Source: Candidatus Woesearchaeota archaeon
Lineage (GTDB): Archaea > Nanobdellota > Nanobdellia > Pacearchaeales > GW2011-AR1
Assembly: GCA_964366925.1 (NCBI GenBank)
Contig: CAYIVX010000001.1
Coordinates: 1 to 54,509, forward strand
Direction: 5' to 3'
Length of the DNA stretch: 54,509 bases
Part shown: one piece after another, positions 9,221-51,969 of the stretch
How the letters are laid out: each line of letters starts with the position of its first letter
Numbering within the stretch: position 1 is the first letter of the stretch
Translations under genes and position numbers: made by a program
Notes under the pieces: model-generated
Seen by the model: only the letters and a program-made list of their open reading frames with translations
Databases searched by the model: none
Told to the model about the DNA's origin: nothing

Positions 9221-10462
9221 TTAAACTGTTAATTTCCCAAGAGAAAGAACAATCTCCTGGCGTTTTTCGGTTAAGTAGTCTGATTCTTCTTCACTAAGAT
9301 TCATTTGTTTTTTTGCAACATCGTCAGTTATTAATGCAAGTATGTTAAAATCATGAAGAGCACGTTTTTTACTTGTATGAATAAGTTCTGCAAGTTTTCC
9401 AGATATACTTTTCTTTTTTAAATTCTTTTGATTTATCATCCAAATTTTTAAAATTCTTTTTGGTGGATTATATTTTGTAAATCTGTCTGGCAGACTTTTA
9501 TTTCCTTTTGCTGCAGAGATTCCTGCTGTAAGAAAGAAGTTCTGATAAGTCATAAAACGCCAGTGTTGCTGTCGGTATATTCTTCCTTTGAAAATATCTG
9601 CTTTGCTCATTGCTTCAAATGCTTTTGCAAGTTCTTCTCCACGATACTCTCCAGGTATATTTTCTTCTAGCCAAAGAGCTATTTGGTCTATTTCCATTTC
9701 AACACTATCATAGGCCTCGATTGTTTTCTTGTGCGTTTTTGTTTTGAATATTTCTCTAAGTGCATTAAATATATCCTGAGATTTTTCTCTTAAATCTATT
9801 TCTTGTTGCATTATTTCAGTTTCTTCTGAATAGATTATTGATTGTAAATCATTTAATGCTGCACGTAAATCTCCTCTTGATTTTGCAGCTATTTCTTTTA
9901 GAGCATTTTCATTAACAATCTTATTTTCTTTTTTTGATATTTCTTTTAGGAAATCTAGTATAGAAAGATAAGGAATTTCTTTAATTGGAACCATTTCACA
10001 TTTGTTTCTAAGTAAAGAGAATTTGTTTTGCCAGATATCGTTGCAGGTTATTATTATCGGAAATTTTGTTCTTTCTATAAGAACTATTAATTCTGGAAGT
10101 CCGCCATAATCTGTTGTAGTAACTCCATCAACTTCATCAACTAGAATTATTTTTCCTTTTGAAAAAAGTGAATGTTGCTGAGTTGATGGTTTTAGAACTT
10201 CATCAAGTTTTGCCCTATTTCTTAAATCGCTTGAGTTTAATTCGAATATTTCATGATTTAATTCTTGTGCGATAACGTGTGCAAGGGTTGTTTTTCCTGT
10301 TCCTGCAGGCCCGTAGAGAAGCATTGCCTTTTTTTGAGATATTCCTTTATTGAAAGAGTTGACGAAAGCTTTTATCTTATCAATGGCTACATCTTGATTT
10401 TTTATTTCAGAAAAATTCTTTGGGCGATATTTTTCAAATAGGGGAGTTGTAGGATTTAACAT
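9221..10462 (-). CDS. rfcL: Replication factor C large subunit
   Basis: Has KYRPKNFSEI, LLYGPAGTGKTTLAHVIAQEL and ILVDEVDG. 413 aa. Co-oriented with rfcS. Confidence 0.85.
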   Translation of the reverse strand: MLNPTTPLFEKYRPKNFSEIKNQDVAIDKIKAFVNSFNKGISQKKAMLLYGPAGTGKTTLAHVIAQELNHEIFELNSSDLRNRAKLDEVLKPSTQQHSLFSKGKIILVDEVDGVTTTDYGGLPELIVLIERTKFPIIITCNDIWQNKFSLLRNKCEMVPIKEIPYLSILDFLKEISKKENKIVNENALKEIAAKSRGDLRAALNDLQSIIYSEETEIMQQEIDLREKSQDIFNALREIFKTKTHKKTIEAYDSVEMEIDQIALWLEENIPGEYRGEELAKAFEAMSKADIFKGRIYRQQHWRFMTYQNFFLTAGISAAKGNKSLPDRFTKYNPPKRILKIWMINQKNLKKKSISGKLAELIHTSKKRALHDFNILALITDDVAKKQMNLSEEESDYLTEKRQEIVLSLGKLTV

Positions 10463-12231: not shown

Positions 12232-12510
12232 TTATTGTTTATAAACCTTATCAATTTCCCTGGCCAGGATAAAATCTTGCTCTGTAAGCCCTTTTTGACT
12301 TCTTGTTGCGAGTGATATTCTAATTAATAGATTATCCCATGTTATTGTTGGAAAATGAGATTGTTTCTCTGCTAATTCTGAAATTTTGGAAATAAATAAT
12401 TTTGATTCATTGAAGTTGGTAAACTTAAAATCTTTAGTTATTGAGCCAAATTCTAGATTCCAGTTATTTAACTTTTCTGTCTCTTTTTGAATTTCAGATA
12501 AATTTAGCAT
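12232..12510 (-). CDS. Pterin-4-alpha-carbinolamine dehydratase (PCD/DCoH family)
   Basis: 92 aa. Contains NNWNLE...ITKDFKFTNFNESKLFISKISELAEKQSHFPTITWDNLLIRISLATRSQKGLTEQDFILAREID, the typical PCD layout. Confidence 0.7.
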   Translation of the reverse strand: MLNLSEIQKETEKLNNWNLEFGSITKDFKFTNFNESKLFISKISELAEKQSHFPTITWDNLLIRISLATRSQKGLTEQDFILAREIDKVYKQ

Positions 12511-12576
12511 GAGTTATTATTGTTTTATTGATTATAAAGATTTTTATATGGACTTAATCCTTATTTTAATATCTTT

Positions 12577-12649
12577 AGTCCCGTAAGACAGTGGTCAAGT
12601 CTTCGAGATTCTGAATCTCGCAACCCCGGTTCGAATCCGGGCGGGACTA
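12577..12649 (+). tRNA. tRNA-Gln (anticodon CTG)
   Basis: Manual fold: acceptor AGTCCCG/CGGGACT (A1:U72), D stem AGAC/GTCT, anticodon stem CGAGA/TCTCG with loop TTCTGAA, T arm CCCGG-TTCGAAT-CCGGG, discriminator A. 73 nt. Confidence 0.85.
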
Positions 12650-12766
12650 TTTTTATTCTAAAAATAGTTAGTATTTTAATCGGATTCGAACGCACAGAAA
12701 ATCATCTATTTTCTGAGATTTAAAAACAAGTATATTTTTAAATAATCCGGGCGGGACTATTTTTAT
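12634..12766 (+). repeat. Perfect 23-bp direct repeat of the tRNA-Gln 3' end flanking an 87-bp insert
   Basis: AATCCGGGCGGGACTATTTTTAT occurs at 12634-12656 and 12744-12766. The insert carries hairpin CAGAAAAT-catct-ATTTTCTG (12695-12715) and an inverted 11-nt T-arm fragment, CGGATTCGAAC. Confidence 0.8.
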
Positions 12767-13094: not shown

Positions 13095-13167
13095 GCCCCC
13101 ATAGTCTAGAGGCCAAGGACGATTCCTTCTCAAGGAATAAACCCGGGTTCGAATCCCGGTGGGAGCA
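13095..13167 (+). tRNA. tRNA-Glu (anticodon CTC) with a C3:A70 acceptor mismatch
   Basis: Manual fold: GCCCCCA/TGGGAGC acceptor, D GTCT/GGAC, anticodon stem ATTCC/GGAAT with loop TTCTCAA, T arm CCGGG-TTCGAAT-CCCGG, discriminator A. Confidence 0.85.
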
Positions 13168-13345
13168 TTAACCCCTTATGTGATTTTAGTGGGCATCCTT
13201 CTTTAGGATGTGTATGGACTTTATTAAGATCATTGGGATCTTACGAGTTTTTAAACTTTGTCGAGAGAAAATGTCACAAAAAAGTGACTGAACAAAAAAA
13301 GAAAAAAGAAAAATTGGGAATAGAATCATAAACATTACTTTATGG

Positions 13346-13495
13346 CTATTCTTCGTATTCAGCTAAGAGTTCTTGACCCTTCTCAGAATCAAAATCTACA
13401 AAGTCTATGCTGGGCTTATCCATATCAACTTTTCTAAATTGTTTAAGCTTTTCATCTACAGTATATCCTTTGAATGTAGGCAATTCTTTAACCAT
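13346..13495 (-). CDS. Small acidic ORF (49 aa) within the integrated element
   Basis: Own translation: MVKELPTFKGYTVDEKLKQFRKVDMDKPSIDFVDFDSEKGQELLAEYEE. Its start overlaps the stop of the upstream small ORF (ATGGTTAA). Confidence 0.35.
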   Translation of the reverse strand: MVKELPTFKGYTVDEKLKQFRKVDMDKPSIDFVDFDSEKGQELLAEYEE

Positions 13496-13634
13496 TTTTA
13501 GACCTTGAATTTTCTCTCTTTAATTTCCAAGATGTAACATTGAATAATTTTCCTTTTTCTTTTGCTTCTTCAAATGCTTCTTTCAATGCTTTTTCTTCAT
13601 CGAGTTCAAATTCAGAGTTATTTTCTTTTACCAT
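13488..13634 (-). CDS. Small ORF (48 aa) within the integrated element
   Basis: Own translation: MVKENNSEFELDEEKALKEAFEEAKEKGKLFNVTSWKLKRENSRSKNG. It is preceded by AGGAGG 7 nt upstream. Confidence 0.35.
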   Translation of the reverse strand: MVKENNSEFELDEEKALKEAFEEAKEKGKLFNVTSWKLKRENSRSKNG

Positions 13635-13754
13635 TTTAACCTCCTATTCGGTATTTATTTGAATATTTAAATTTTTTTGTAAAAGAATATTTAATTTCCA
13701 TAATACTTATTAACTTTTGATTAATAAATACCTCTTGGATAAAATAAGAACAAG

Positions 13755-14036
13755 TCATTTCTCCTTAACAAACCAAAGCAATATTGGCAAAGCTTCGCCC
13801 TCTCTTTTTAATTTATTAAAAGCTTTTTCAAGATCTTTAGGCTCGTAATAAAAAGTCATTTTATATCCAAATGTAGAACTTCTTTCTTTAAGCTGGGGAA
13901 ATTCTTCTATTACTGGTTTTCTTAAACTCATCAAACTCCAAGAATGAGTGCTTTCTATATAAGATAGTTTTCCTTTTATCTCTAGTTTATTTCTTTGTGG
14001 TCTTAATACTTTTTCTTCCATTTTGCGATGTATCAT
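13755..14036 (-). CDS. Hypothetical protein (93 aa) within the integrated element
   Basis: ORF track entry. No recognisable motif. Confidence 0.45.
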   Translation of the reverse strand: MIHRKMEEKVLRPQRNKLEIKGKLSYIESTHSWSLMSLRKPVIEEFPQLKERSSTFGYKMTFYYEPKDLEKAFNKLKREGEALPILLWFVKEK

Positions 14037-14112
14037 CTCTTTTACATCGCTTTTTTTACTAGACTAATTAAGATAAACTTCTCGAGTTTATAAATTTGGT
14101 TTCGAATTTTCT

Positions 14113-14261
14113 CCTGAACTGTTCAGGGTTTTTCCCTGAACACCAAACTTATCGAGAGAGAGCAATTTTCAAAAAAGTCGAAAAATCCCTGAACACTTTT
14201 TTCAGCAGAAAAGTATTTAAATAGAAGAACCGAATTAAAATTGAGGTGGTGAGGTGTTCAG
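14113..14261. promoter_or_regulatory. Array of CCTGAACA sites (iteron/operator-like) upstream of the 502-aa gene
   Basis: 15-nt palindrome CCTGAACTGTTCAGG at 14113-14127. CCTGAACA at 14135-14142 and 14188-14195. The inverted form TGTTCAG at 14255-14261. The array ends 29 nt before the ATG at 14290. Confidence 0.5.
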
Positions 14262-14289
14262 CCACCCAGACTGATTCTGAGCGAATATA

Positions 14290-15798
14290 ATGAAGTCAAT
14301 GAAACACGACATAATATCTTTATTTGAAGAGAAAGAAACTGAAATCCCAACATCAGAGATAGTCCTAGCTGTTTCTAAAGAATATGCCCAACTAAAGTCT
14401 CAGAAAAACTTCAATCAAGCCAGACAGATTCACAGGAGAGTTCTTTATCACTTAAACATGCTTGTTCGAGAAAACATACTTAGAGTTGATGGCTATGGAA
14501 AGAACGGACAAAAATCCTATGCCTTAAATGTTTCAGAAGGAGAGCAATTAATAGAGATATCTCCTACAAAATATAAAAAAGAACTTATCGGAAACAGAAT
14601 CCTAATGCCAATAATGCCTATTGAAGGATATGAACAGAAAGGTATTGTTATAAAATCTGGATCTTTAACTGAAAAATTAAACTCTATTGTTGTTTTATGT
14701 GATAAATATTCAGGAGAATTAATCCCCTTAGTTAAGAAACTCCTATCTATTATTGACGATTGTATTTGCCTAGAAAATTTTGAAAGAGAGATAAACAAGA
14801 AAAATGTCATTACTCTTGTTAAAGAATTAGATAAAGAATGTTCATTATATGGCAGAAAAATAAGCTTTTCTGTTAATATCTCTGATGTTGAAAAGAGCAG
14901 AATATTAGAATTAATCCGAGAAACAATTAATCTTAAAAGCATAAACTTTGTTTTTGGGATTAATAAAACAGCATTGTTTGAAAAAGCTGATTTAATCTCT
15001 TCTCTTTTTGATATCTATGCTAAAGAAAAGAAAACTATCTTTCTCAAAAATAGAGATAAGTTTGACTTGCCTTATTTTGTGGGTAATATGGGCGTATATA
15101 GTTTTGATGAAGAAGAATGGAATAATATGCAAGAGAAACCAGCATGCATTGCCTGTTCTCAAAGCACTATTGTCCTAGATGTAAAAAAGTTTTATGATAA
15201 CTATGGATTTAACTTAATTCGATTCAAGGAATTGCTTATGAATATCTCTAAATCTTTTCTGGCTATAAATTCTATACAAAGAGGAAAAGTAAGAGACTAC
15301 TTTAAAGAAAATATCCCTGATTATAATATAGATTTTTTGGAATTATCCCGAAATTATATTAGATTATGGAACTTTGGCTTATTAGAGCCAGAATTAGAAA
15401 CAGAAAAAGTTTTAGATATAATTGATAAAGCTAAACATAAAATCGATGAGTTTGCCCGAACACAGGATAGAATATACAACAGCTGTGGAATGTCAATAAG
15501 ATTCAAGCTTGCTTTAAATCAGGCATCTAAGCAATCTGCAGAGAGTTTAAGCTCAGCAAAATATAAACAGATGCAGATAGACGGATTAAATTCAATAATT
15601 GCAGATTTAAAAGACAGAATAGAAGAAACTTCAAAAGTTTCCTCTTATTTTGATGGAGGCATACATGTTAAGTTTCATCGAATTGGAAAAATAGAAAATT
15701 CTAAAGAATTGCTTAATGAAGTTTCTCTTCTTCTGAATAGGCATAACCTCGCTTTCTTTTCTTATGATATGGAGGGATTAGAATATGGTAGAAATTAG
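14290..15798 (+). CDS. 502-aa protein of unknown function with probable N-terminal winged-helix domain
   Basis: The N-terminal ~85 aa (IPTSEIVLAVSKEY...RRVLYHLNMLVRENILRVDGYGKNGQKSYAL) look wHTH-like. The rest has no P-loop or other motif I recognise. Confidence 0.55.
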   Translation: MKSMKHDIISLFEEKETEIPTSEIVLAVSKEYAQLKSQKNFNQARQIHRRVLYHLNMLVRENILRVDGYGKNGQKSYALNVSEGEQLIEISPTKYKKELIGNRILMPIMPIEGYEQKGIVIKSGSLTEKLNSIVVLCDKYSGELIPLVKKLLSIIDDCICLENFEREINKKNVITLVKELDKECSLYGRKISFSVNISDVEKSRILELIRETINLKSINFVFGINKTALFEKADLISSLFDIYAKEKKTIFLKNRDKFDLPYFVGNMGVYSFDEEEWNNMQEKPACIACSQSTIVLDVKKFYDNYGFNLIRFKELLMNISKSFLAINSIQRGKVRDYFKENIPDYNIDFLELSRNYIRLWNFGLLEPELETEKVLDIIDKAKHKIDEFARTQDRIYNSCGMSIRFKLALNQASKQSAESLSSAKYKQMQIDGLNSIIADLKDRIEETSKVSSYFDGGIHVKFHRIGKIENSKELLNEVSLLLNRHNLAFFSYDMEGLEYGRN

Positions 15799-16435
15799 CG
15801 GAAAAACATCAACAGAAGTCTGGAAGAAAATATTAAAGACTATTATGACTGAAGGAGACTCGTTTAAAGATAGAAGAAAAAGAATCTGCAAAGAAATTTT
15901 AAATGTCTGTGCTACAATTCAGACTACAGATGGAATAATGAAACCTATTGAAACACTTACTAAATTCAATAAATGGATTTATCCTACTCCTGAAAAAATT
16001 AAGAATTCAATTCTCAATAAAGAAGATTCTTCAGAATATTATTATAATTACGGAAAACGGGCTTTTGATCTAGACGGAATAAATCAGATTGATGATTATT
16101 TAATCCCTCTTCTTAAAAAAACTCCGACATCTAAGAGAGGAATCGTTGTTTTTTATTCGCCTGAAAAAGATACTCTTCCCTTAAGAAAAGAAACCCCCGG
16201 TATTGTAATGATTAATTTTATTATTAGAGATAATAAACTTCATTCTACGATGGTCATAAGAAGTAATGATATGTTTCATGGATGGCCTGGAAATGTTGCT
16301 CAAGCATATTTCTTAACAGAGTATGTAGCTGAAGAACTAAATTATCCTATTGGTTCAATAACTACTTTTTCCATTTCAGCCCACATATTTGAAGAGCAAT
16401 TTGAAGATATAAAGAAAGTTATAGGGCGTATATAG
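15785..16435 (+). CDS. Thymidylate synthase (ThyA/dCMP-HMase superfamily) homolog lacking the catalytic Cys
   Basis: [21 protein letters not shown] aligns to E. coli [45 protein letters not shown] aligns to IDQITTVLNQLKNDPDSRRIIV. The P-C-H nucleophile position reads P-G-I. Overlaps the upstream gene by 14 nt. Confidence 0.7.
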   Translation: [216 protein letters not shown]

Positions 16436-16460
16436 TTTTGATTAAGAAGCTGGAGGATTT

Positions 16461-16574
16461 TTATTTATTCCAAATTAGGAATAAATTAATCCACTTTTGA
16501 AGCCTTGACTTCTTCTTAAGTTTCTCAATTTCTTCTTTTTGTTCTTTTAATTCCTTTTCAATTTGTTCTTCCAT
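16461..16574 (-). CDS. Possible 37-aa ORF immediately downstream of the integrase
   Basis: Own translation: MEEQIEKELKEQKEEIEKLKKKSRLQKWINLFLIWNK. The ATG lies 1 nt after the integrase stop. Weak support. Confidence 0.25.
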   Translation of the reverse strand: MEEQIEKELKEQKEEIEKLKKKSRLQKWINLFLIWNK

Positions 16575-16575
16575 C

Positions 16576-17733
16576 TTAGATATCCTCCTTTATCTCTAAA
16601 TGTAAGCTATCCGCTACCATATCGAACTTTTTAATATATTTTTCAAGATTTGCCAGCCGTTCTTGCATTATAACCTTCTCTTTCTCAGATTTTTCGAGTC
16701 TTTGCTCAATTTCGGTTTTTGTTAGATCTAGAAGCATATCTTCCTGACTTATCGTATCCTTCATTCCCAATAATTCAGAATAATAATGGATTTTATCGCT
16801 TTTTTTCCAGCCAAATCTATACTTTAAGGCAGATTCAGACTTATATCTTGGAAGCCAGTAACAGCAAGCATTATGTCTAAAATCGTATAAAGTTAATTCA
16901 GAATATTTCTGCCCAGCAGGGCTTTTTCCTTCACCCAGTACTCTCGTAGCTAATCTTTGGAGATACTGATTTGTTCTGCTCGGGCTTATTTTAAATAGAT
17001 AATCTTCAGAGTTTAATTGGAAAACCTTGATATATTCTTTGATTAATTCTGAACTTAACATTAGCTTAATTCTTCTTCCGAAAGTTTTGCTGATTTCATC
17101 TCGTATATTAAGCTCTTTGAAATCATTAAAGAAGTCTGATACTTTTATATTCATTAATTCTGTAGGCGCCCTAATTCCCGTATCAAAAAGAAACATCATT
17201 AAGACTTTATAATTAAATTTAGCATTATCACATAATTGCTTGACCTGCTCTTCAGTTAAATATACCCAATCAGGTTTATCTCTAGAAGTATCAAGATCGA
17301 TAGTTATATCGGGTATATCTTTCCCTTTTTTCCTATTAACTTTTTGATACCAGTGCCAGAAAGCCTTGAATGCTTTAACATAATCCGCAGTTGCTATAAA
17401 CACCTCGCCATTAAGCCTTCTTATCTCTCCATAACGCATTCCTGAGAAAAAGCCCATTAGTTGTTCTTCACTAATATCTATCACACAATCAAGATCGTGC
17501 AATTCCTTAAATTTCTTTGAAAAGAAAATAAGTCTATTCTTTAAAGAATTCAGTCTTGAATGGCTTCTAGACCCTTTAACACTTTCTTGAGCAATATTTA
17601 ACCCCTTTTCCATATCGTTTAGATATTGAAGTATAATTGCAGAATTTTTTTGACTTACACTTGCAATATTCTGCTGATTTTTATCTTTCCATGCAAGATA
17701 CATTTCTTTATGTTTGTACGGGTCTATTTTCAT
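16576..17733 (-). CDS. Tyrosine recombinase / integrase
   Basis: Has FDTGIRAPTEL (box I Arg), LYDFRHNACCYW (H/R box) and SDKIHYYSELLG (candidate catalytic Tyr). 385 aa with a coiled-coil C-terminus. Adjacent to the right att-like repeat. Confidence 0.85.
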   Translation of the reverse strand: MKIDPYKHKEMYLAWKDKNQQNIASVSQKNSAIILQYLNDMEKGLNIAQESVKGSRSHSRLNSLKNRLIFFSKKFKELHDLDCVIDISEEQLMGFFSGMRYGEIRRLNGEVFIATADYVKAFKAFWHWYQKVNRKKGKDIPDITIDLDTSRDKPDWVYLTEEQVKQLCDNAKFNYKVLMMFLFDTGIRAPTELMNIKVSDFFNDFKELNIRDEISKTFGRRIKLMLSSELIKEYIKVFQLNSEDYLFKISPSRTNQYLQRLATRVLGEGKSPAGQKYSELTLYDFRHNACCYWLPRYKSESALKYRFGWKKSDKIHYYSELLGMKDTISQEDMLLDLTKTEIEQRLEKSEKEKVIMQERLANLEKYIKKFDMVADSLHLEIKEDI

Positions 17734-17840
17734 GTTTTATTGAAAGCAAGAGTTTTAAAAACTCTCTTGTATTTTTACCTGTACATACTCATCTTAGAGT
17801 AAAGGATGCCCGCCGAAAGTCACACAAACGTATAGGTATC

Positions 17841-17978
17841 GGTGGGGGCATTTTGCTGCTAAAGAATGAAGCAGTAGGCCACCAAGGTTCAGAAACTGAA
17901 GATTTCTGACTCTCCAACTCTCGCGAGTTGAAGACAATAAAAATTCAGAAATAATTTTTTAGCTGGTGGGGGCATTAA
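17841..17978. repeat. Duplicated tRNA-Glu 3'-end fragment GGTGGGGGCATT flanking a 112-bp insert
   Basis: The 12-nt repeat occurs at 17841-17852 and 17965-17976. The insert carries hairpin TCAGAAA-ctgaaga-TTTCTGA (17889-17909) and hairpin CAACTC-tcgc-GAGTTG (17915-17930). Confidence 0.6.
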
Positions 17979-25999: not shown

Positions 26000-28900
26000 A
26001 TGGGGTGGAGTTTATTTGACGAAAAAGGGGATATTTTGCCCGCAAAGGTTTTTAGTAATGGAAAAAATCAGGAAGATGTTGTTCTAGAAGTAGTTAATGA
26101 AATAAAAAAAGGTACAAAAATTATTTTTATTCATGGAGTTTGTGGTAGCGGGAAATGTCTTGAAAAGAATACCCGAATATTCTGTAAACCGAAGGGGATT
26201 GACTACTTGGGTTATTATCCAATTTCTCAACTTGTTGGAAAAGAGGGAATTATAGTTTCGCTGGATAAAACGGGTAATATGGTTGAAAGTAAATTTACAA
26301 ATGTCGTAAATAGTGGTAAAAAGAGGCTATATAAAATAAAAACAAGAACGGGTAGAGATTTGCAATGTTCGATTAATCATCCGTTCTTGACAATTACGCG
26401 TAATGGTTTAGAATGGTTACCTTTAGAAAAATTAGATAAAAATTCCTATATTTGTTTGCCAAATAAGACCTCTCTTAAAAATCAAGCCTCTTTGGACAAA
26501 AATAAGATTAAGATTTTAGCTCATTTAATTGCTGAAGGTAAATTAGGCGATAAAAATGGTTCACCTAAATATTATCAAAATCCATTGACTGATTTAGAAG
26601 TAAGGCAAGATTATGAAAATGCATTAAAGAAATTATTTCCCGAAGGACAATTAAAGAGTTCTTCTCCTTGTGAGGTCACTATGGCATTTAATAATAAAGA
26701 TACTAGATTTGGAACTACTAATAAACTTAGACTTTTAATTAGAGAGTTTGGTTTAGACGGCGGGAAGTCGGGGGATAAGTTTGTTCCGCCAATTATTTTT
26801 AATTTAAATGATGCTGATGTTGCCTTGTTTTTAAAAACCTTATTTTCAGGAGATGGAACTATTTATGAAAAAAAGAGTCATGCAAGAGAGAATTCTACGA
26901 TTATTGTAGAATATTGTTCTATTTCAAAAAAACTTATACAAGATGTTTCTATGCTTTTAATGAGATTCGGAATACAACACACGATAACTCCCAAAAAATT
27001 TAGAGAAGATAAAAATTATTCTTGGACTATTCATATCTCCAATCAAAAACAAGTTAGAAAATTTATCAAAAATATTGGTTTTATTGGTAGAAAACAGGTA
27101 TTTGCTGAAAAAGTATTAGGAAGTTTACAAGATCATAAATTTACCAACATAGATAAAGTTCCAAGAGTTATAAGAGAATATTTGAAAGATAGGGGTTATA
27201 CTTATAATGATCTTTATCGATTCTTGAATTATACTGAATTTGAAAAATTTAAGGATGTGGGATTTAAGAAAATTTTGAATAAGAAATTAGTAAGTTGTCC
27301 TTTTGTGTTTAGACAACAGAAAATAGACTTTTTGAGAGAACATATAACAAAAATAAAGGAACATATTAAAGACGCTACTCCTGATTTTATATGCAGTGAA
27401 GATATTTTTTGGGATAGATTAGATAAAATTGAATTTATTGGAGAGGATGAAACTTATGATTTGGAAGTTCCACATTATCATAATTTTATTGCTGATGGAA
27501 TTATTGTGCATAATTCGGCTATCGCTCTTAATATTGCTCGTGAACTTGGTAGGGCTAGTATTGTTGTTCCAATAAAGAATCTTCAGAGACAATATGCTGA
27601 GGATTATACTAATAAAAAATATGTTCTTAAAAAAGATGGCAAAAAATTAAAAATATCCCTGATTACGGGTAGAAGAAATCATATTTGCCCTTACTTGAAA
27701 GACAATCAAAAAGATATTTTATTAAGCAGAATTAGAGAGAAAAATGCAAATCTTACAGATATTTTTTCAGGAGTTAATTCTTCTAATTTTCATCGAAAGA
27801 ATGCAGAGGAGGATGATTCTTGTGATAATTATCTTATCCCCTGTAAAATTGAAATAAAAAGCAAAAATATTTCTACACTTAAGAAATATTATAATGAGAA
27901 TCCTGATAGGAAAGATAATTCGGAACTAGATTTGAAGGTTGCTAAGAGATTTGCGGTTGCTCCTGCTTGTCCTTATTGGAATCCTATTTTGCCTACTGAA
28001 ATGAATGTCAAGAACGATTGGTTAAAAAAAGAATATAAATCTGTTGCAGGGAGTCATACTATCTATGTTAGAAAAGATGGATGCCCCTATTATCGACAGT
28101 TTGAAGCTTATGCGGACTCTGATGTAATTATCTTTAATGGCGATCAATATATACTAGAAACTGCACTTGGAAGAAAGCCTTCTACTGATGTTGAAATAAT
28201 TGATGAGTGTGATGAATTTTTAGATAATTTTGCACTGGAGGGATCAATAAATATTACTAGGTTGAGAAATGAATTGTCCGGAATTATGTGTAGTGATGAT
28301 GCTCAAAGAAAACTTGTTGATGGGCTTAATGAGGGGCTTCTTGAAATTCTTGAAGAGTCTTCTAAGAATATTGATAAAAAAGATAATATTCTTGAAGTTA
28401 ATAAAACTAAAGTTTCTGAATTAATTGCCGCACTTGTTAAAAGTGATGTTTTTGAAATTATGAGTGATGAAAGTTATTTGGAGCATTGTGTTGAAGAAGC
28501 AAGAAAATTTTTTGATGTTATGGATGAAAGTTTTGTTAATTATTATAAAGATAAAAATCGAGGAGATATCTTTGTTAAACTTGTTACTATTAACTTAGAT
28601 AAGCTTCTTTCTTCTCTTATTGAAAAGAATAAGGCTTTTGTTTTTATGTCTGGAACTCTCCATAGCAAAAGAGTTTTAGAAGAAATTTTTGGATTGAAGG
28701 ATTTTAAGATTATTGATGCAGAAACTTTTAAGCTTGGAACTATTAAAAAACTTAGAACAGGTTTAGAGCAGGATTTAAAATTTGATAATTTTGAAAAGAA
28801 GGTAGTTAGTCGTGAAAAATATTTATTGGCCTTGGATAAGTGTGTTGAGATTGCTAAAATTCCTATTCTTGTTCATGTTAGTGCATTTAATGATTTGCCT

Positions 28901-29293
28901 TCGACTAATGAAATTGAGCAATTTAGACTAAAGAATCTTATCAGTTTTTCAGAATTAGTTGAACAGCAAAATTCAGATCGTGAAGGAAAGATGGTAAATG
29001 ATTTTAAGGCAGGAAAAATAAAAATTCTTTTTACTACAAGATGTAATAGGGGTATTGATTTTCCTTTTGAGACTTGCAATAGCGTTGTAATAACTAAATT
29101 TCCCTATCCTAATACCCAGTCTTTATTTTGGAAAATTTTAAAACAAAATAAGCCCGATATTTTCTGGGATTTTTATAAAGATAAAGCTTATAGGGAACTT
29201 TTGCAAAAAGTTTATCGAAGTGTTCGGGCGGTTAATGATTCTGTTTTCTTGCTTTCCCCAGATATACGTGTTATGAATAGTAGTGTTGTGTAG
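26000..29293 (+). CDS. XPD/Rad3/DinG-like superfamily-2 helicase interrupted by an intein
   Basis: The extein P-loop is HGVCGSGK|...|SAIAL. Cys-rich insert: HICPY, SCDNYLIPC, ACPYWNP, GCPYYRQ. DExD-like IIDECDEF. GIDFPFETCNSVVITKFPYP and QKVYRSVRAVNDSVFLLSPDIR resemble XPD motifs V/VI. Confidence 0.75.
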   Translation: MGWSLFDEKGDILPAKVFSNGKNQEDVVLEVVNEIKKGTKIIFIHGVCGSGKCLEKNTRIFCKPKGIDYLGYYPISQLVGKEGIIVSLDKTGNMVESKFTNVVNSGKKRLYKIKTRTGRDLQCSINHPFLTITRNGLEWLPLEKLDKNSYICLPNKTSLKNQASLDKNKIKILAHLIAEGKLGDKNGSPKYYQNPLTDLEVRQDYENALKKLFPEGQLKSSSPCEVTMAFNNKDTRFGTTNKLRLLIREFGLDGGKSGDKFVPPIIFNLNDADVALFLKTLFSGDGTIYEKKSHARENSTIIVEYCSISKKLIQDVSMLLMRFGIQHTITPKKFREDKNYSWTIHISNQKQVRKFIKNIGFIGRKQVFAEKVLGSLQDHKFTNIDKVPRVIREYLKDRGYTYNDLYRFLNYTEFEKFKDVGFKKILNKKLVSCPFVFRQQKIDFLREHITKIKEHIKDATPDFICSEDIFWDRLDKIEFIGEDETYDLEVPHYHNFIADGIIVHNSAIALNIARELGRASIVVPIKNLQRQYAEDYTNKKYVLKKDGKKLKISLITGRRNHICPYLKDNQKDILLSRIREKNANLTDIFSGVNSSNFHRKNAEEDDSCDNYLIPCKIEIKSKNISTLKKYYNENPDRKDNSELDLKVAKRFAVAPACPYWNPILPTEMNVKNDWLKKEYKSVAGSHTIYVRKDGCPYYRQFEAYADSDVIIFNGDQYILETALGRKPSTDVEIIDECDEFLDNFALEGSINITRLRNELSGIMCSDDAQRKLVDGLNEGLLEILEESSKNIDKKDNILEVNKTKVSELIAALVKSDVFEIMSDESYLEHCVEEARKFFDVMDESFVNYYKDKNRGDIFVKLVTINLDKLLSSLIEKNKAFVFMSGTLHSKRVLEEIFGLKDFKIIDAETFKLGTIKKLRTGLEQDLKFDNFEKKVVSREKYLLALDKCVEIAKIPILVHVSAFNDLPSTNEIEQFRLKNLISFSELVEQQNSDREGKMVNDFKAGKIKILFTTRCNRGIDFPFETCNSVVITKFPYPNTQSLFWKILKQNKPDIFWDFYKDKAYRELLQKVYRSVRAVNDSVFLLSPDIRVMNSSVV
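26156..27514 (+). mobile_element. Intein (453 aa) with LAGLIDADG homing-endonuclease domain inserted in the helicase Walker A motif
   Basis: Starts with Cys (CLEKNT). Block B is CSINHPFL. LAGLIDADG motifs are ILAHLIAEGKLGD and LFLKTLFSGDGTIY. The C-terminus reads YDLEVPHYHNFIADGIIVHN, followed by +1 Ser. Confidence 0.85.
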
Positions 29294-51001: not shown

Positions 51002-51943
51002 ATGAGAATAATTCTAGGGAAAGGATATCAAAAGAAGCTTATTTTAAATGCAAAAGAAAAGAATAATTTTACTTGGGAAGAATTGACTATGAAACTTGGG
51101 TTTACAAAACATTATTGGAGTAATGAATTATTTAATGAAAAAATAAGTATTAATGAAAAAACATATAGCTCTTTGTGTAAACTTGTCGGAGAAAATTTTG
51201 ATAAGTATATTGAAAAGAAACTGGATGATAATTGGGGTAGGTCAAAAGGTGGCAAGAATTCTGGTAGTTTTAGAGAACCAAAACTTTTGATAAAAAAACC
51301 TTCAAAAGAATTAGCCGAAATTGTAGGAATTATTCTTGGAGATGGAAATATTTACTCTAAGAAAGGATATTATTATGTTAGAATATGTGGCGATAGCATA
51401 AAAGATAGAGATTATTTATTAAATCATGTTAAACCGATGTTTGATCATTTATTTGATTGTAAAATGTATTCTATTGAACACAAAATAGCTAATGAACTAT
51501 TCATTTCGATTGGTAATAAGGATATTGTTTATACCTTGAAGCATTTTGGTTTGAAAGACGGAGATAAAATGAAAAATAATGTTAAAATTCCTAATTGGAT
51601 ATTTGAATCAGAAGATTATATTCGGGCATGTGTAAGGGGATTAATAGATACCGATGGTTGTGTTTGTCCTATTACTGGAAGGAATTATCCTTATATCTGG
51701 TTTTCATGTGCTATTGAAAATTTAAGAAAAAGTTTTGATAAGGCTATGAAAAAAATAGGTATTAAAACTTCTAAATGGAATATAAGACCCCCACGGACTC
51801 CTGATATTTATATTGGAAGTAAGGAGATGATTAACAAATATATTCAAACAATAAGTTTTAAAAACGAACGACATTTGACTAAATTAGATAAATTAAGCCC
51901 CCGTCGTCCAGAGGCCAAGGACACGGCCCTTTCAAGGCTGTAA
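51002..51943 (+). CDS. Free-standing LAGLIDADG homing endonuclease-like protein
   Basis: Two LAGLIDADG motifs: LAEIVGIILGDGNIY and ACVRGLIDTDGCV. The last 47 nt run into tRNA-Glu(UUC). Confidence 0.7.
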   Translation: MRIILGKGYQKKLILNAKEKNNFTWEELTMKLGFTKHYWSNELFNEKISINEKTYSSLCKLVGENFDKYIEKKLDDNWGRSKGGKNSGSFREPKLLIKKPSKELAEIVGIILGDGNIYSKKGYYYVRICGDSIKDRDYLLNHVKPMFDHLFDCKMYSIEHKIANELFISIGNKDIVYTLKHFGLKDGDKMKNNVKIPNWIFESEDYIRACVRGLIDTDGCVCPITGRNYPYIWFSCAIENLRKSFDKAMKKIGIKTSKWNIRPPRTPDIYIGSKEMINKYIQTISFKNERHLTKLDKLSPRRPEAKDTALSRL

Positions 51944-51969
51944 CCCGGGTTCGAATCCCGGCGGGGGCA
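51897..51969 (+). tRNA. tRNA-Glu (anticodon TTC)
   Basis: Manual fold: GCCCCCG/CGGGGGC acceptor, D GTCC/GGAC, anticodon stem CGGCC/GGCTG with loop CTTTCAA, T arm CCGGG-TTCGAAT-CCCGG, discriminator A. 73 nt. Confidence 0.9.

Follow-up and report, generated by a model that had tools for sequence, protein, structure and literature searches.

What does a small integrase-bearing insertion in an archaeal tRNA gene carry, where exactly does it end, and what might its cargo do? We address these questions for an island at the tRNA-Glu(CUC) gene of a Candidatus Woesearchaeota archaeon, in a stretch of 54,509 nucleotides (contig CAYIVX010000001.1, positions 1 to 54,509; hereafter the window). The initial annotation of this DNA had placed an integrase-bounded insertion of about 4.8 kb in the 3' end of the tRNA gene, had described its cargo as entirely unknown, and had suggested that it could be a cryptic plasmid, a provirus remnant or the carrier of a new two-gene module. 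The tRNA, the 14-nt repeat at its end and the intact integrase are all found as placed there, but the cargo is not as enigmatic as had been held: it is a two-gene operon, the products of which are predicted to adopt the folds of a ribonucleotide reductase (RNR) catalytic subunit fused to a winged helix, and of thymidylate synthase (ThyA), and it is preceded by an operator-like array shared across the family. Our preferred interpretation, to which we assign a probability of about 0.65, is that an integrated island of ~4.7 kb at tRNA-Glu carries a mobile copy of this RNR-fold/ThyA-fold operon, and that the two proteins would act as a nucleotide-binding, self-regulating pair. The coordinates of all features are collected in Table 1.

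The first gene of the operon codes for a protein of 502 aa, for which an AlphaFold model was built from 37 homologues. Comparison of this model with the PDB using Foldseek recovered RNR catalytic subunits as all of its top 16 matches (E-values of 3e-8 to 5e-4, probability >=0.99, template-modelling (TM) scores of 0.43-0.48). These include the class III RNR of T. maritima (E 3e-8, probability 1.0, TM 0.43-0.47 over ~500 columns), as well as the class Id alpha subunit and NrdE, and the top matches in BFVD were likewise RNRs, including the R1 homologues of betaherpesviruses. In Foldseek searches the N-terminus (~residues 1-110) resembles Fur-type winged-helix proteins. At the level of sequence, no link to RNRs was recovered with Pfam (E up to 1), NCBIfam, PHROGs or a profile search of the PDB (E up to 10), and a profile search of 1.84 billion proteins delineated a closed family of 232 clusters at 50% identity, again with no link to RNRs. 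The modelled protein has the RNR fold, and the resemblance is at the level of the fold only.

With the class III (NrdD) and class Id/II RNRs (PDB 4coj, 4con, 6dqw) the predicted structure shares the alpha/beta-barrel fold over ~500 columns, at Foldseek E-values of 3e-8 to 2e-6 and a probability of 1.0; unlike them, it has a smaller barrel of ~400 aa, a winged helix in place of the ATP cone, and neither the radical motifs, the Zn ribbon nor a linked activase or R2. The N-x-C-x-E finger-loop motif and the glycyl-radical motif are each found in 0 of 236 family members, a double CxxC is present in only two of the 236, and neither a Zn ribbon nor a C-terminal pair of Tyr or Cys residues was found in the family. 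The most conserved hairpin, which lies between the half-barrels, has the form P-Y-x-x-G-x-x-G-x-Y and is devoid of Cys. The sole near-invariant Cys, Cys399 of an S-C-G motif, is present in 86 of 87 RNR-like proteins and is situated outside that hairpin. The 30 largest families of neighboring genes, most of them identified by reading the sequences and three confirmed with Pfam, include no recurrent gene of the radical-SAM or R2 type, and no class I or II RNR is present in the fetched loci. The catalytically inactive R1 homologues of betaherpesviruses offer a precedent for the RNR large-subunit fold in a non-catalytic role; nevertheless, they differ from the present family in host, size and partners, and are not known to bind DNA or to be paired with a ThyA homologue.

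The second gene had been described as coding for a Cys-less ThyA homologue; its product does match the Pfam ThyA model PF00303, and has Gly at the position of the nucleophilic Cys. The model for methanogen-type ThyA (TIGR03283) scores 123.9 bits, below its cut-off of 174.55, but is still the closest sequence model, and an AlphaFold2 (AF2) model with a predicted local distance difference test (pLDDT) score of 91 matches ThyA structures in Foldseek at E 3e-16. The catalytic Cys of the superfamily (Cys146 of E. coli) aligns to Gly139, with TPC in B. subtilis ThyA versus TPG here; across 98 clusters this position is occupied by G in 84, S in five, A in five and C in four. Cys35 was considered as a relocated nucleophile and rejected, as it is not strictly conserved, 4 of the 98 clusters having F, Y, I or V in its place. 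The residues for binding dUMP, namely K117-R118, R159-S160-N161-D162, N170 and H200, are kept in at least 91 of the 98 clusters, their equivalence to Arg126'-Arg127', Arg166-Ser167, Asp169, Asn177 and His207 being drawn from a motif alignment with ThyA.

The best global structural match of the ThyA-like protein is 9iqu (TM 0.80/0.80, root-mean-square deviation 3.3, 217 residues), which is AfhB, a compact phage flavin-dependent dCMP hydroxylase of the ThyA superfamily (PMC13326640). The diagnostic features of the flavin-dependent 5-hydroxy-dCMP (5hodCMP) synthase branch are D169N, N177D and a retained Cys146, whereas a Glu or Asp in place of L143 marks ThyA homologues with products other than a methyl group (PMC13326640). 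The present family is unlike the 5hodCMP synthases in having Asp162 (91/98), Asn170 (96/98) and Gly139. The only feature in which it resembles that branch is the acidic residue at the L143 position (E136, or Asp); it is also compact, like AfhB, at ~215 aa.

The phyletic and contextual distribution of the two genes indicates how far they belong together and how far they belong to the island. A scan of one genome per species detected the RNR-like gene in 108 of the 185,579 genomes covered, the carriers being Woese-, Pace- and Nanoarchaeota, all of DPANN type except for a few labels that we judged to come from mislabelled metagenome-assembled genomes (MAGs). Many carrier MAGs among loci L014-L093 (fetched loci are given L numbers) are titled 'uncultured Methanosarcinales archaeon' and one 'Alphaproteobacteria'; the carrier loci are syntenic with those of Woese- and Nanoarchaeota, so that the odd labels are probably taxonomic errors. 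The ThyA-like gene directly follows the RNR-like gene in 79 of the 80 genome loci kept, the exception being a contig end. A median of 1 nt separates the two genes, which overlap in 32 of 85 pairs; in the window the start of the ThyA-like gene overlaps the upstream stop codon by 14 nt. The only RNR-like gene without a ThyA-like gene next to it is that of L003 (8001-9973; P0005, 63% identical), where the contig ends shortly after; this locus also has three or four extra genes between its P93-like and RNR-like genes, P93 being a 93-aa protein coded divergently from the operon in the window.

The neighbors of the pair are largely housekeeping genes, such as those for ArgRS, ThrRS, ABCE1, Lon, a DRG GTPase and uracil-DNA glycosylase (UDG). 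Of 87 loci, 59 also have a divergently oriented gene for an Lrp/AsnC regulator, the position of which is held in the clade of the window by the unrelated P93. UDG occurs near the pair in ten loci and dCTP deaminase in one. An integrase or TraC-like gene lies <=10 kb from the pair only in the window's clade (the window, L009, L010 and L011), which is monophyletic and nested within the chromosomal family, and the window's integrase is not encoded near the pair in any of the 80 genome loci. Hence, the pair is a mostly chromosomal DPANN operon, of which only the window's clade has been captured by mobile elements. Of the possibilities initially raised, the carriage of a two-gene module was the right one, albeit that the module is not specific to the island. 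The operon appears undescribed, as a variant within two well-known enzyme superfamilies: full-text searches of the literature recovered no description of the RNR-like/ThyA-like pair or of the integrase family.

The DNA upstream of the pair provides a further line of evidence. An array of CCTGAACA sites had been noted ahead of the operon and proves to be real, with five sites in 14113-14262, every other exact copy in the window being a singleton. An equivalent array is present upstream in all family members examined, comprising a CTGAA-n-TTCAG palindrome and several CTGAAAC half-sites, the last of which lies just 5' of a TATA-like box; in the window, the site at 14188-14195 stands just upstream of such a box at 14214-14223. 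Across 85 loci, CTGAA/TTCAG has a median of 5 occurrences per 260 nt upstream versus a background of 0.9, and the 6-mers GTTTCA and CCTGAA are enriched 6-8-fold. As the array is kept in clades without the Lrp/AsnC neighbor, the winged helix fused to the RNR-like domain is the most likely binder, and we suggest that the protein binds the array in its own promoter. In the mobile-element clade (L009, L010, L011 and the window), the RNR-like gene is also preceded by a conserved 40-nt leader, with a stem that encloses a GTTCAG half-site. By eye, this stem is kept through paired changes (GGTGA/TCAC in L010 and GGTAG/CTAC in L011), while RNAalifold preferred a different fold.

A winged helix beside a repeated-site array might also be read as a replication initiator acting on CCTGAACA 'iterons' in the remnant of a plasmid or provirus, a reading to which the relatives of the cargo in elements with VirB4/TraC-like and TrbC-like genes lend some color. 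We give it next to no credence and regard it as largely refuted. More than 100 genomes have the protein and its array, in most cases amid housekeeping genes such as those for ArgRS, ThrRS, ABCE1 and Lon; the protein is paired with a ThyA-like one, and its predicted fold is that of an RNR and not of a Rep, primase or helicase. Moreover, neither the integrase nor the RNR-like protein has relatives in phage records, plasmid records or IMG/VR, and in PHROGs the matches are restricted to the integrase and thymidylate synthase families. The initial suggestion of a cryptic plasmid or provirus remnant is thus not supported.

What then might the pair do? We posit that the RNR-fold and ThyA-fold proteins form a complex, as suggested by the translational coupling of their genes; that this complex would bind a uridylate-type nucleotide, as suggested by the conserved ThyA pocket; and that it may repress or activate its own promoter via the winged helix on the CTGAA(A/C) array. 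Judging from the sequences, we consider it more likely that two pseudoenzymes have been co-opted as a sensor of pyrimidine nucleotides, or 'trigger' regulator, than that the two work as active enzymes, because the nucleophile position drifts among small residues and there is no radical machinery. Trigger enzymes and enzyme-derived regulators such as BirA, PutA, NadR and NrdR, with a DNA-binding domain fused to an enzyme-like domain and metabolite-responsive self-repression, are parallels by analogy only and share no homology with the pair. DPANN archaea depend on their hosts for nucleotides. At a more general level, we tentatively raise the possibility that DPANN archaea possess a self-regulating complex derived from descendants of two central enzymes of deoxynucleoside triphosphate (dNTP) synthesis, which might be either a DNA-binding pseudoenzyme sensor of the pyrimidine deoxynucleotide pool or an enzyme with a split active site, and the operon for which mobile elements would have captured at least once. 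In the latter case the RNR-fold subunit, with Cys399, would provide the chemistry that its ThyA-fold partner no longer has, and the product would be a nucleotide new to science.

The most substantial alternative to a sensor is that the pair is an active two-subunit enzyme, which produces a modified pyrimidine nucleotide, e.g. a 5-substituted dUMP, for DNA modification, the nucleophile or other chemistry coming from the RNR-fold subunit by way of Cys399. Several features are compatible with such an activity: the ThyA-like protein keeps the uracil-specific Asn at the N177 position and Asp at that of D169, the Glu/Asp at the L143 position is the mark of non-methyl products (PMC13326640), and its best structural match, 9iqu, indicates that the ThyA fold can switch cofactor. 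The near-invariance of Cys399 and the tight translational coupling of the genes point the same way, as do the DNA methyltransferases and restriction enzymes among the neighbors in mobile elements; a product for DNA modification would explain why the operon was picked up by elements rich in restriction-modification systems. We nevertheless hold an active enzyme to be the less likely reading, albeit a serious rival. Cys146 is kept in every characterized ThyA-superfamily enzyme cited in the work on AfhB (PMC13326640), whereas the drift between G, S, A and C seen here suggests a requirement for a small residue and not chemistry. The other conserved Cys, Cys35, is dispensed with in four clusters, no gene for a glycosyltransferase, kinase or other hypermodification enzyme is linked to the pair, and most copies reside among housekeeping genes.

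It could also be proposed that the pair represents the lineage's own divergent RNR and thymidylate synthase, i.e. a new minimal class of RNR serving dNTP synthesis. The conjunction of the two folds in one operon, its widespread and mostly chromosomal presence in the genome-reduced DPANN archaea, and the proximity of dCTP deaminase in one locus and of UDG in ten would be in keeping with this idea. However, the RNR radical motifs, a linked radical generator and the ThyA nucleophile are all missing, and the family is patchy (108/185,579 species genomes) and dispensable enough to ride on islands, which makes such a housekeeping role highly improbable. The sensor interpretation, to which we return, lends the cargo its larger interest: this is a strictly paired operon of more than 100 species with the RNR and ThyA folds but without their hallmark catalytic residues. 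Either pseudoenzymes would here have gained a role as regulators in a further, new instance, or two well-studied enzyme superfamilies would harbor new chemistry. With two proteins that look soluble and a well-defined predicted DNA site, the pair is a concrete and cheap candidate for testing.

How the operon came to lie next to the tRNA gene can be read from the ends of the element. The 14-nt direct repeat, GGTGGGAGCATTAA at 13158-13171 and GGTGGGGGCATTAA at 17965-17978, has a third copy, GGTGGGGGCATTTT at 17841-17854, which was absent from the initial annotation. Allowing <=2 mismatches, the 54.5-kb window contains exactly three matches to this core, with 0.33 expected, and 0 of 100 shuffles gave three. 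The left copy has an A where both right-hand copies have a G, which points to a hybrid att site, as expected if the attP core differs by one base from its target. This base falls in the acceptor stem of tRNA-Glu(CUC), which as read from the sequence (5' GCCCCCA opposite 3' TGGGAGC) has a C3-A70 mismatch; the G of the right-hand copies would restore a C3-G70 pair. We propose that recombination by the integrase between the attP core CGGTGGGAGCATTAA and the tRNA-Glu(CUC) 3' end left the hybrid attL on the left and the displaced original end, now the attR, on the right. The A at 13164 of attL would then derive from the element, and the 7-nt CGGTGGG, the identical stretch 5' of the A/G difference, would be the crossover region. 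The predicted junctions are ...ACGTATAGGTATCGGTGGG[A/G]GCATTAACCCCTTATGTGATT... for attP and ...GGTTCGAATCCCGGTGGGGGCATTTTGCTGCTAAAG... for attB.

Of the two right-hand copies, it is the inner one that bears the context shared with relatives. The conserved block upstream of the integrase gene, GATACCTATACGG ... ATGTACGGGTAAAAATACAAGAGnGTTTTTAAAACnCTT ... ATG, directly abuts core-like sequence in the window, L097 and L098-L103, and a 43-nt stretch of it is 93% identical. Since this block abuts the 17841 copy, as it does the corresponding core in L097 and L098, we take 17841-17854 to be the true attR, and conclude that the present element extends over 13172-17854 (~4.68 kb), its functional right end being at 17841-17854 and not at 17965-17978. 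The 124 bp beyond attR are probably the scar left by an earlier insertion at the same site. The minus strand of 17855-17964 folds into a closed structure of three hairpins (z = -4.4), and 0 of 200 shuffles gave an equally good fold. No Rfam family matches this stretch and none of the fetched loci has a copy of it; it might represent either an older element in decay or a miniature element that is non-autonomous.

The window's DNA derives from the 0.1-um fraction of groundwater well H43 at Hainich, a well and fraction represented by ENA assemblies ERZ1292626 and ERZ1292629. Both junctions of the island are seen at 99.4-100% identity in replicate assemblies from the same site. A 10-nt inverted repeat had been reported just inside the two ends, and its copies are indeed present at 13191-13200 and 17802-17811. 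Its significance is another matter: inverted repeats of >=10 nt arise between the terminal 150-nt windows in 4.6% of shuffles and 6.9% of real-sequence controls, and it is by itself weak evidence, not clearly above chance. The window has a second tRNA-Glu gene, with the anticodon UUC (51897-51969), which is unoccupied; it ends in GGCGGGGGCAT, one base from the att core, and is accordingly a potential secondary target.

The integrase belongs to a large family, with more than 2450 homologues, of which the top 120 show 63-86% identity and a length of ~383 aa; the few with a named source are from Pacearchaeota and Nanoarchaeia, two groups in which this family seems to be the prevailing one among integrases. 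When 28 members are aligned (A2), R188 is nearly invariant, K216, Y283-D-F-R286-H287 and Y318 are invariant, and W309 and H316 are nearly invariant. By motif order, on which alone these residues were assigned, the catalytic set is present with a Tyr replacing the first His of H-x-x-R. The XerA equivalog model NF040815 scores only 33.3 bits versus a cut-off of 220, and the XerA structure 5hxy is matched only at E 0.004; judged by these scores, the integrase is not XerA. In the classification of She et al., pNOB8-type integrases reportedly keep the int gene intact after integration. The present integrase is like them in its intact gene and in an att core that lies outside the gene, with the 17841 core 107 nt upstream of the start codon. 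Unlike the SSV-type, the gene is not split and is of full family length (385 aa versus ~383); as the reading frame is unsplit and the core is outside it, the integrase is not of the SSV-type.

Close homologues of the integrase are found with different cargo. In L097 this consists of methyltransferases and a C5 DNA methylase, and in L098-L103 of a type III restriction-modification system with AbiEii islands next to it. L098 and L100 have identical integrases, and their sequences diverge exactly at the core. In L098, an AbiEii/TPR island adjoins the island with the integrase and the type III restriction-modification system, and is bracketed by tandem att-like repeats of ~56 nt (2639-2649 and 9882-9892), 7.2 kb apart; these suggest that integrases of this family have added islands one after another at a single site. 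L010 has a 63%-identical integrase beside tRNA-Tyr, with the same cargo as the window. No convincing att repeats were found in L011 or L010, and the right end of the latter may lie beyond the contig. In L013, an intron-containing tRNA-Glu ends in GGTGGGGGCATTAACCC (the same 3' end followed by TTAACCC), after which comes a 90-aa remnant of the same integrase; this tRNA-Glu-like gene (12455-12656, with an intron of ~100 nt) was missed by ARAGORN. With its defined core and conserved arm region, the integrase family can serve as a marker when the mobile elements of these poorly explored symbionts are mapped, even though the island itself is an ordinary tRNA-targeting tyrosine-integrase island.

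Several observations weigh against the interpretation of a mobile island with a nucleotide-binding regulatory pair. The RNR assignment is one of fold only, with TM <0.5 and ~10% identity, and many polar residues are strongly conserved in both proteins, which is as compatible with an active enzyme as with a sensor. As for mobility, the att core is only 12-14 nt long, the GC content of the island equals that of its flanks, and the orientation of the core relative to the integrase gene in L013 is opposite to that in the window, L097 and L098. An inversion of the segment between the inverted repeats was proposed for the L013 orientation and rejected as the principal explanation, since the window, L097 and L098 share a core-GATACC-int layout, the inverted repeat is near chance and the gene order of L010 is not reproduced by it. 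Exact-protein searches with four flanking or internal genes returned only Hainich contigs from the same samples, and yielded neither an empty site nor a circular junction: all contigs from the source samples are integrated or broken inside the tRNA. A single metagenome pattern scan matched only L013, with a pattern that could not have matched the revised attP and attB.

Could the region not be mobile at all, with repeats due to chance or to the tRNA itself and a chromosomal Xer-type or domesticated recombinase beside ordinary genes? The GC content, the lack of an empty site in those searches and of viral relatives, and the unusual conservation of the integrase family (63-86% identity), which is found on very long contigs, would agree with such a view, but we find it barely credible. 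The three cores in the window, against 0.33 expected, and the hybrid tRNA end with its mismatch are hard to reconcile with chance. The divergence of L098 and L100 exactly at the core, the different cargo behind near-identical integrases, the XerA score of 33 bits versus 220, and the absence of this integrase from the vicinity of the pair in all 80 genome loci all speak for insertion. Of the three findings that the initial annotation had named as refuting an island, none was made: the contexts of relatives differ, the integrase is not of the XerA group by its model score, and the 14-mer is not frequent, with three copies in the window.

With regard to the kind of mobile island, the surrounding window is an archaeal chromosome, with genes for PheRS alpha and beta, RFC, deoxyhypusine synthase, archaeosine TGT and an intein-bearing helicase, and the NCBI- or GTDB-named homologues of the window's proteins come from Pacearchaeota and related DPANN archaea. 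The initial annotation saw no capsid, Rep or known defense gene, and this is upheld by Pfam, PHROGs and PADLOC: there are no genes for a capsid, terminase or other virion component, no replication genes among the island proteins as scanned with Pfam, NCBIfam and PHROGs, and no match of the four proteins tested to any family of the PADLOC defense models. Neither a VirB4/TraC-type ATPase nor other transfer genes were found in 13172-17854 with Pfam and PHROGs. VirB4/TraC-like and TrbC-like genes are present in the larger elements that carry the relatives of the cargo in L009 and L011, which makes mobilization in trans conceivable. We therefore envisage a cryptic integrated element, which would be passive, moved only by its own integrase and perhaps mobilized by larger relatives.

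The closest described counterparts are the cryptic integrated elements (CIEs) of Thaumarchaeota, which have an integrase as their sole hallmark, a median att of 17 bp and a size range of 2.6-98 kb (PMC6563490). The island is like them in its sole integrase, its insertion at the 3'-distal part of a tRNA gene, its short att and small size, and in its tandem or nested insertions, the cargo of CIEs often being restriction-modification or unknown genes (PMC6563490). It is unlike them in its DPANN host, in a distinct and very large integrase family, in a shorter att core (12-14 nt), and in a cargo that is a captured chromosomal operon as opposed to defense or replication genes.

Table 1. Features of the tRNA-Glu(CUC) island, in window coordinates
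Feature	Position	Strand	Basis and remarks
tRNA-Glu(CUC), integration target	13095..13167	+	ARAGORN; Rfam 61 bits
attL core, putative hybrid site, C-GGTGGG-A-GCATTAA	13157..13171	+	12/13 nt identical to 17840-17852
Left copy of 10-nt inverted repeat GGGCATCCTT, with local hairpin CATCCT/AGGATG	13191..13210	.	statistically weak
Two overlapping mini-ORFs (open reading frames), 49 and 48 aa, orphans	13346..13634	-	ORF list; no family match
93-aa protein P93, divergent from operon	13755..14036	-	homologues at same position in L003, L009, L010, L011, L066, L077
Putative operator array, five CTGAAC half-sites	14113..14262	.	palindrome CCTGAAC-T-GTTCAGG at 14113-14127
Conserved leader hairpin GGTGG...CCACC	14245..14266	+	just before start codon of RNR-like gene
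Predicted RNR-fold protein, 502 aa	14290..15798	+	winged helix ~residues 1-110, then 10-strand alpha/beta barrel; AF2 pLDDT 86
ThyA-fold protein, 216 aa, without nucleophilic Cys	15785..16435	+	PF00303 68.4 bits (cut-off 24.3), E 7e-19
26-nt direct repeat, second copy; right edge of cargo module	16424..16449	+	first copy 15090-15115; 25/26 identical
37-aa Glu/Lys-rich mini-ORF, orphan, directly after integrase gene	16461..16574	-	ORF list
Tyrosine integrase, intact, 385 aa	16576..17733	-	PF00589 37.9 bits (cut-off 27.1); PHROG 1 'integrase' E 1e-16
Conserved integrase-upstream block (promoter and arm region)	17734..17840	-	adjoins core; contains right inverted-repeat copy 17802-17811
attR core of present element, C-GGTGGG-G-GCATTTT	17840..17854	+	adjoins GATACC as in other integrase-family members
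110-nt structured remnant and outer core copy GGTGGGGGCATTAA (17965-17978)	17855..17978 (124 bp)	.	core search, fold

Among the minor features, the cargo module itself has recognizable edges. DNA homology among the elements of the window, L009, L010 and L011 covers exactly 14010-16425 (its end being at 16419-16425). One copy of the 26-nt direct repeat falls within the RNR-like gene, in the conserved G-x-x-G-x-Y hairpin. The other, which starts exactly at the point where the homology to L009, L010 and L011 stops, contributes the final codons and the stop codon of the ThyA-like gene, and resembles a scar of recombination at the module boundary. The open reading frames of 502 and 93 aa and the mini-ORFs are all present as initially listed, although none of the related loci contains a homologue of the 48-, 49- or 37-aa mini-ORF, and these three are unsupported as genes. 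For P93, a degenerate Lrp/AsnC RAM domain and an HTH_45 regulator were considered and rejected, with hhalign probabilities of 0.2% and 0.1%. Away from the island, the gene for a Helicase_C_2 helicase (26000-29293) is split by an intein that bears a LAGLIDADG homing-endonuclease domain.

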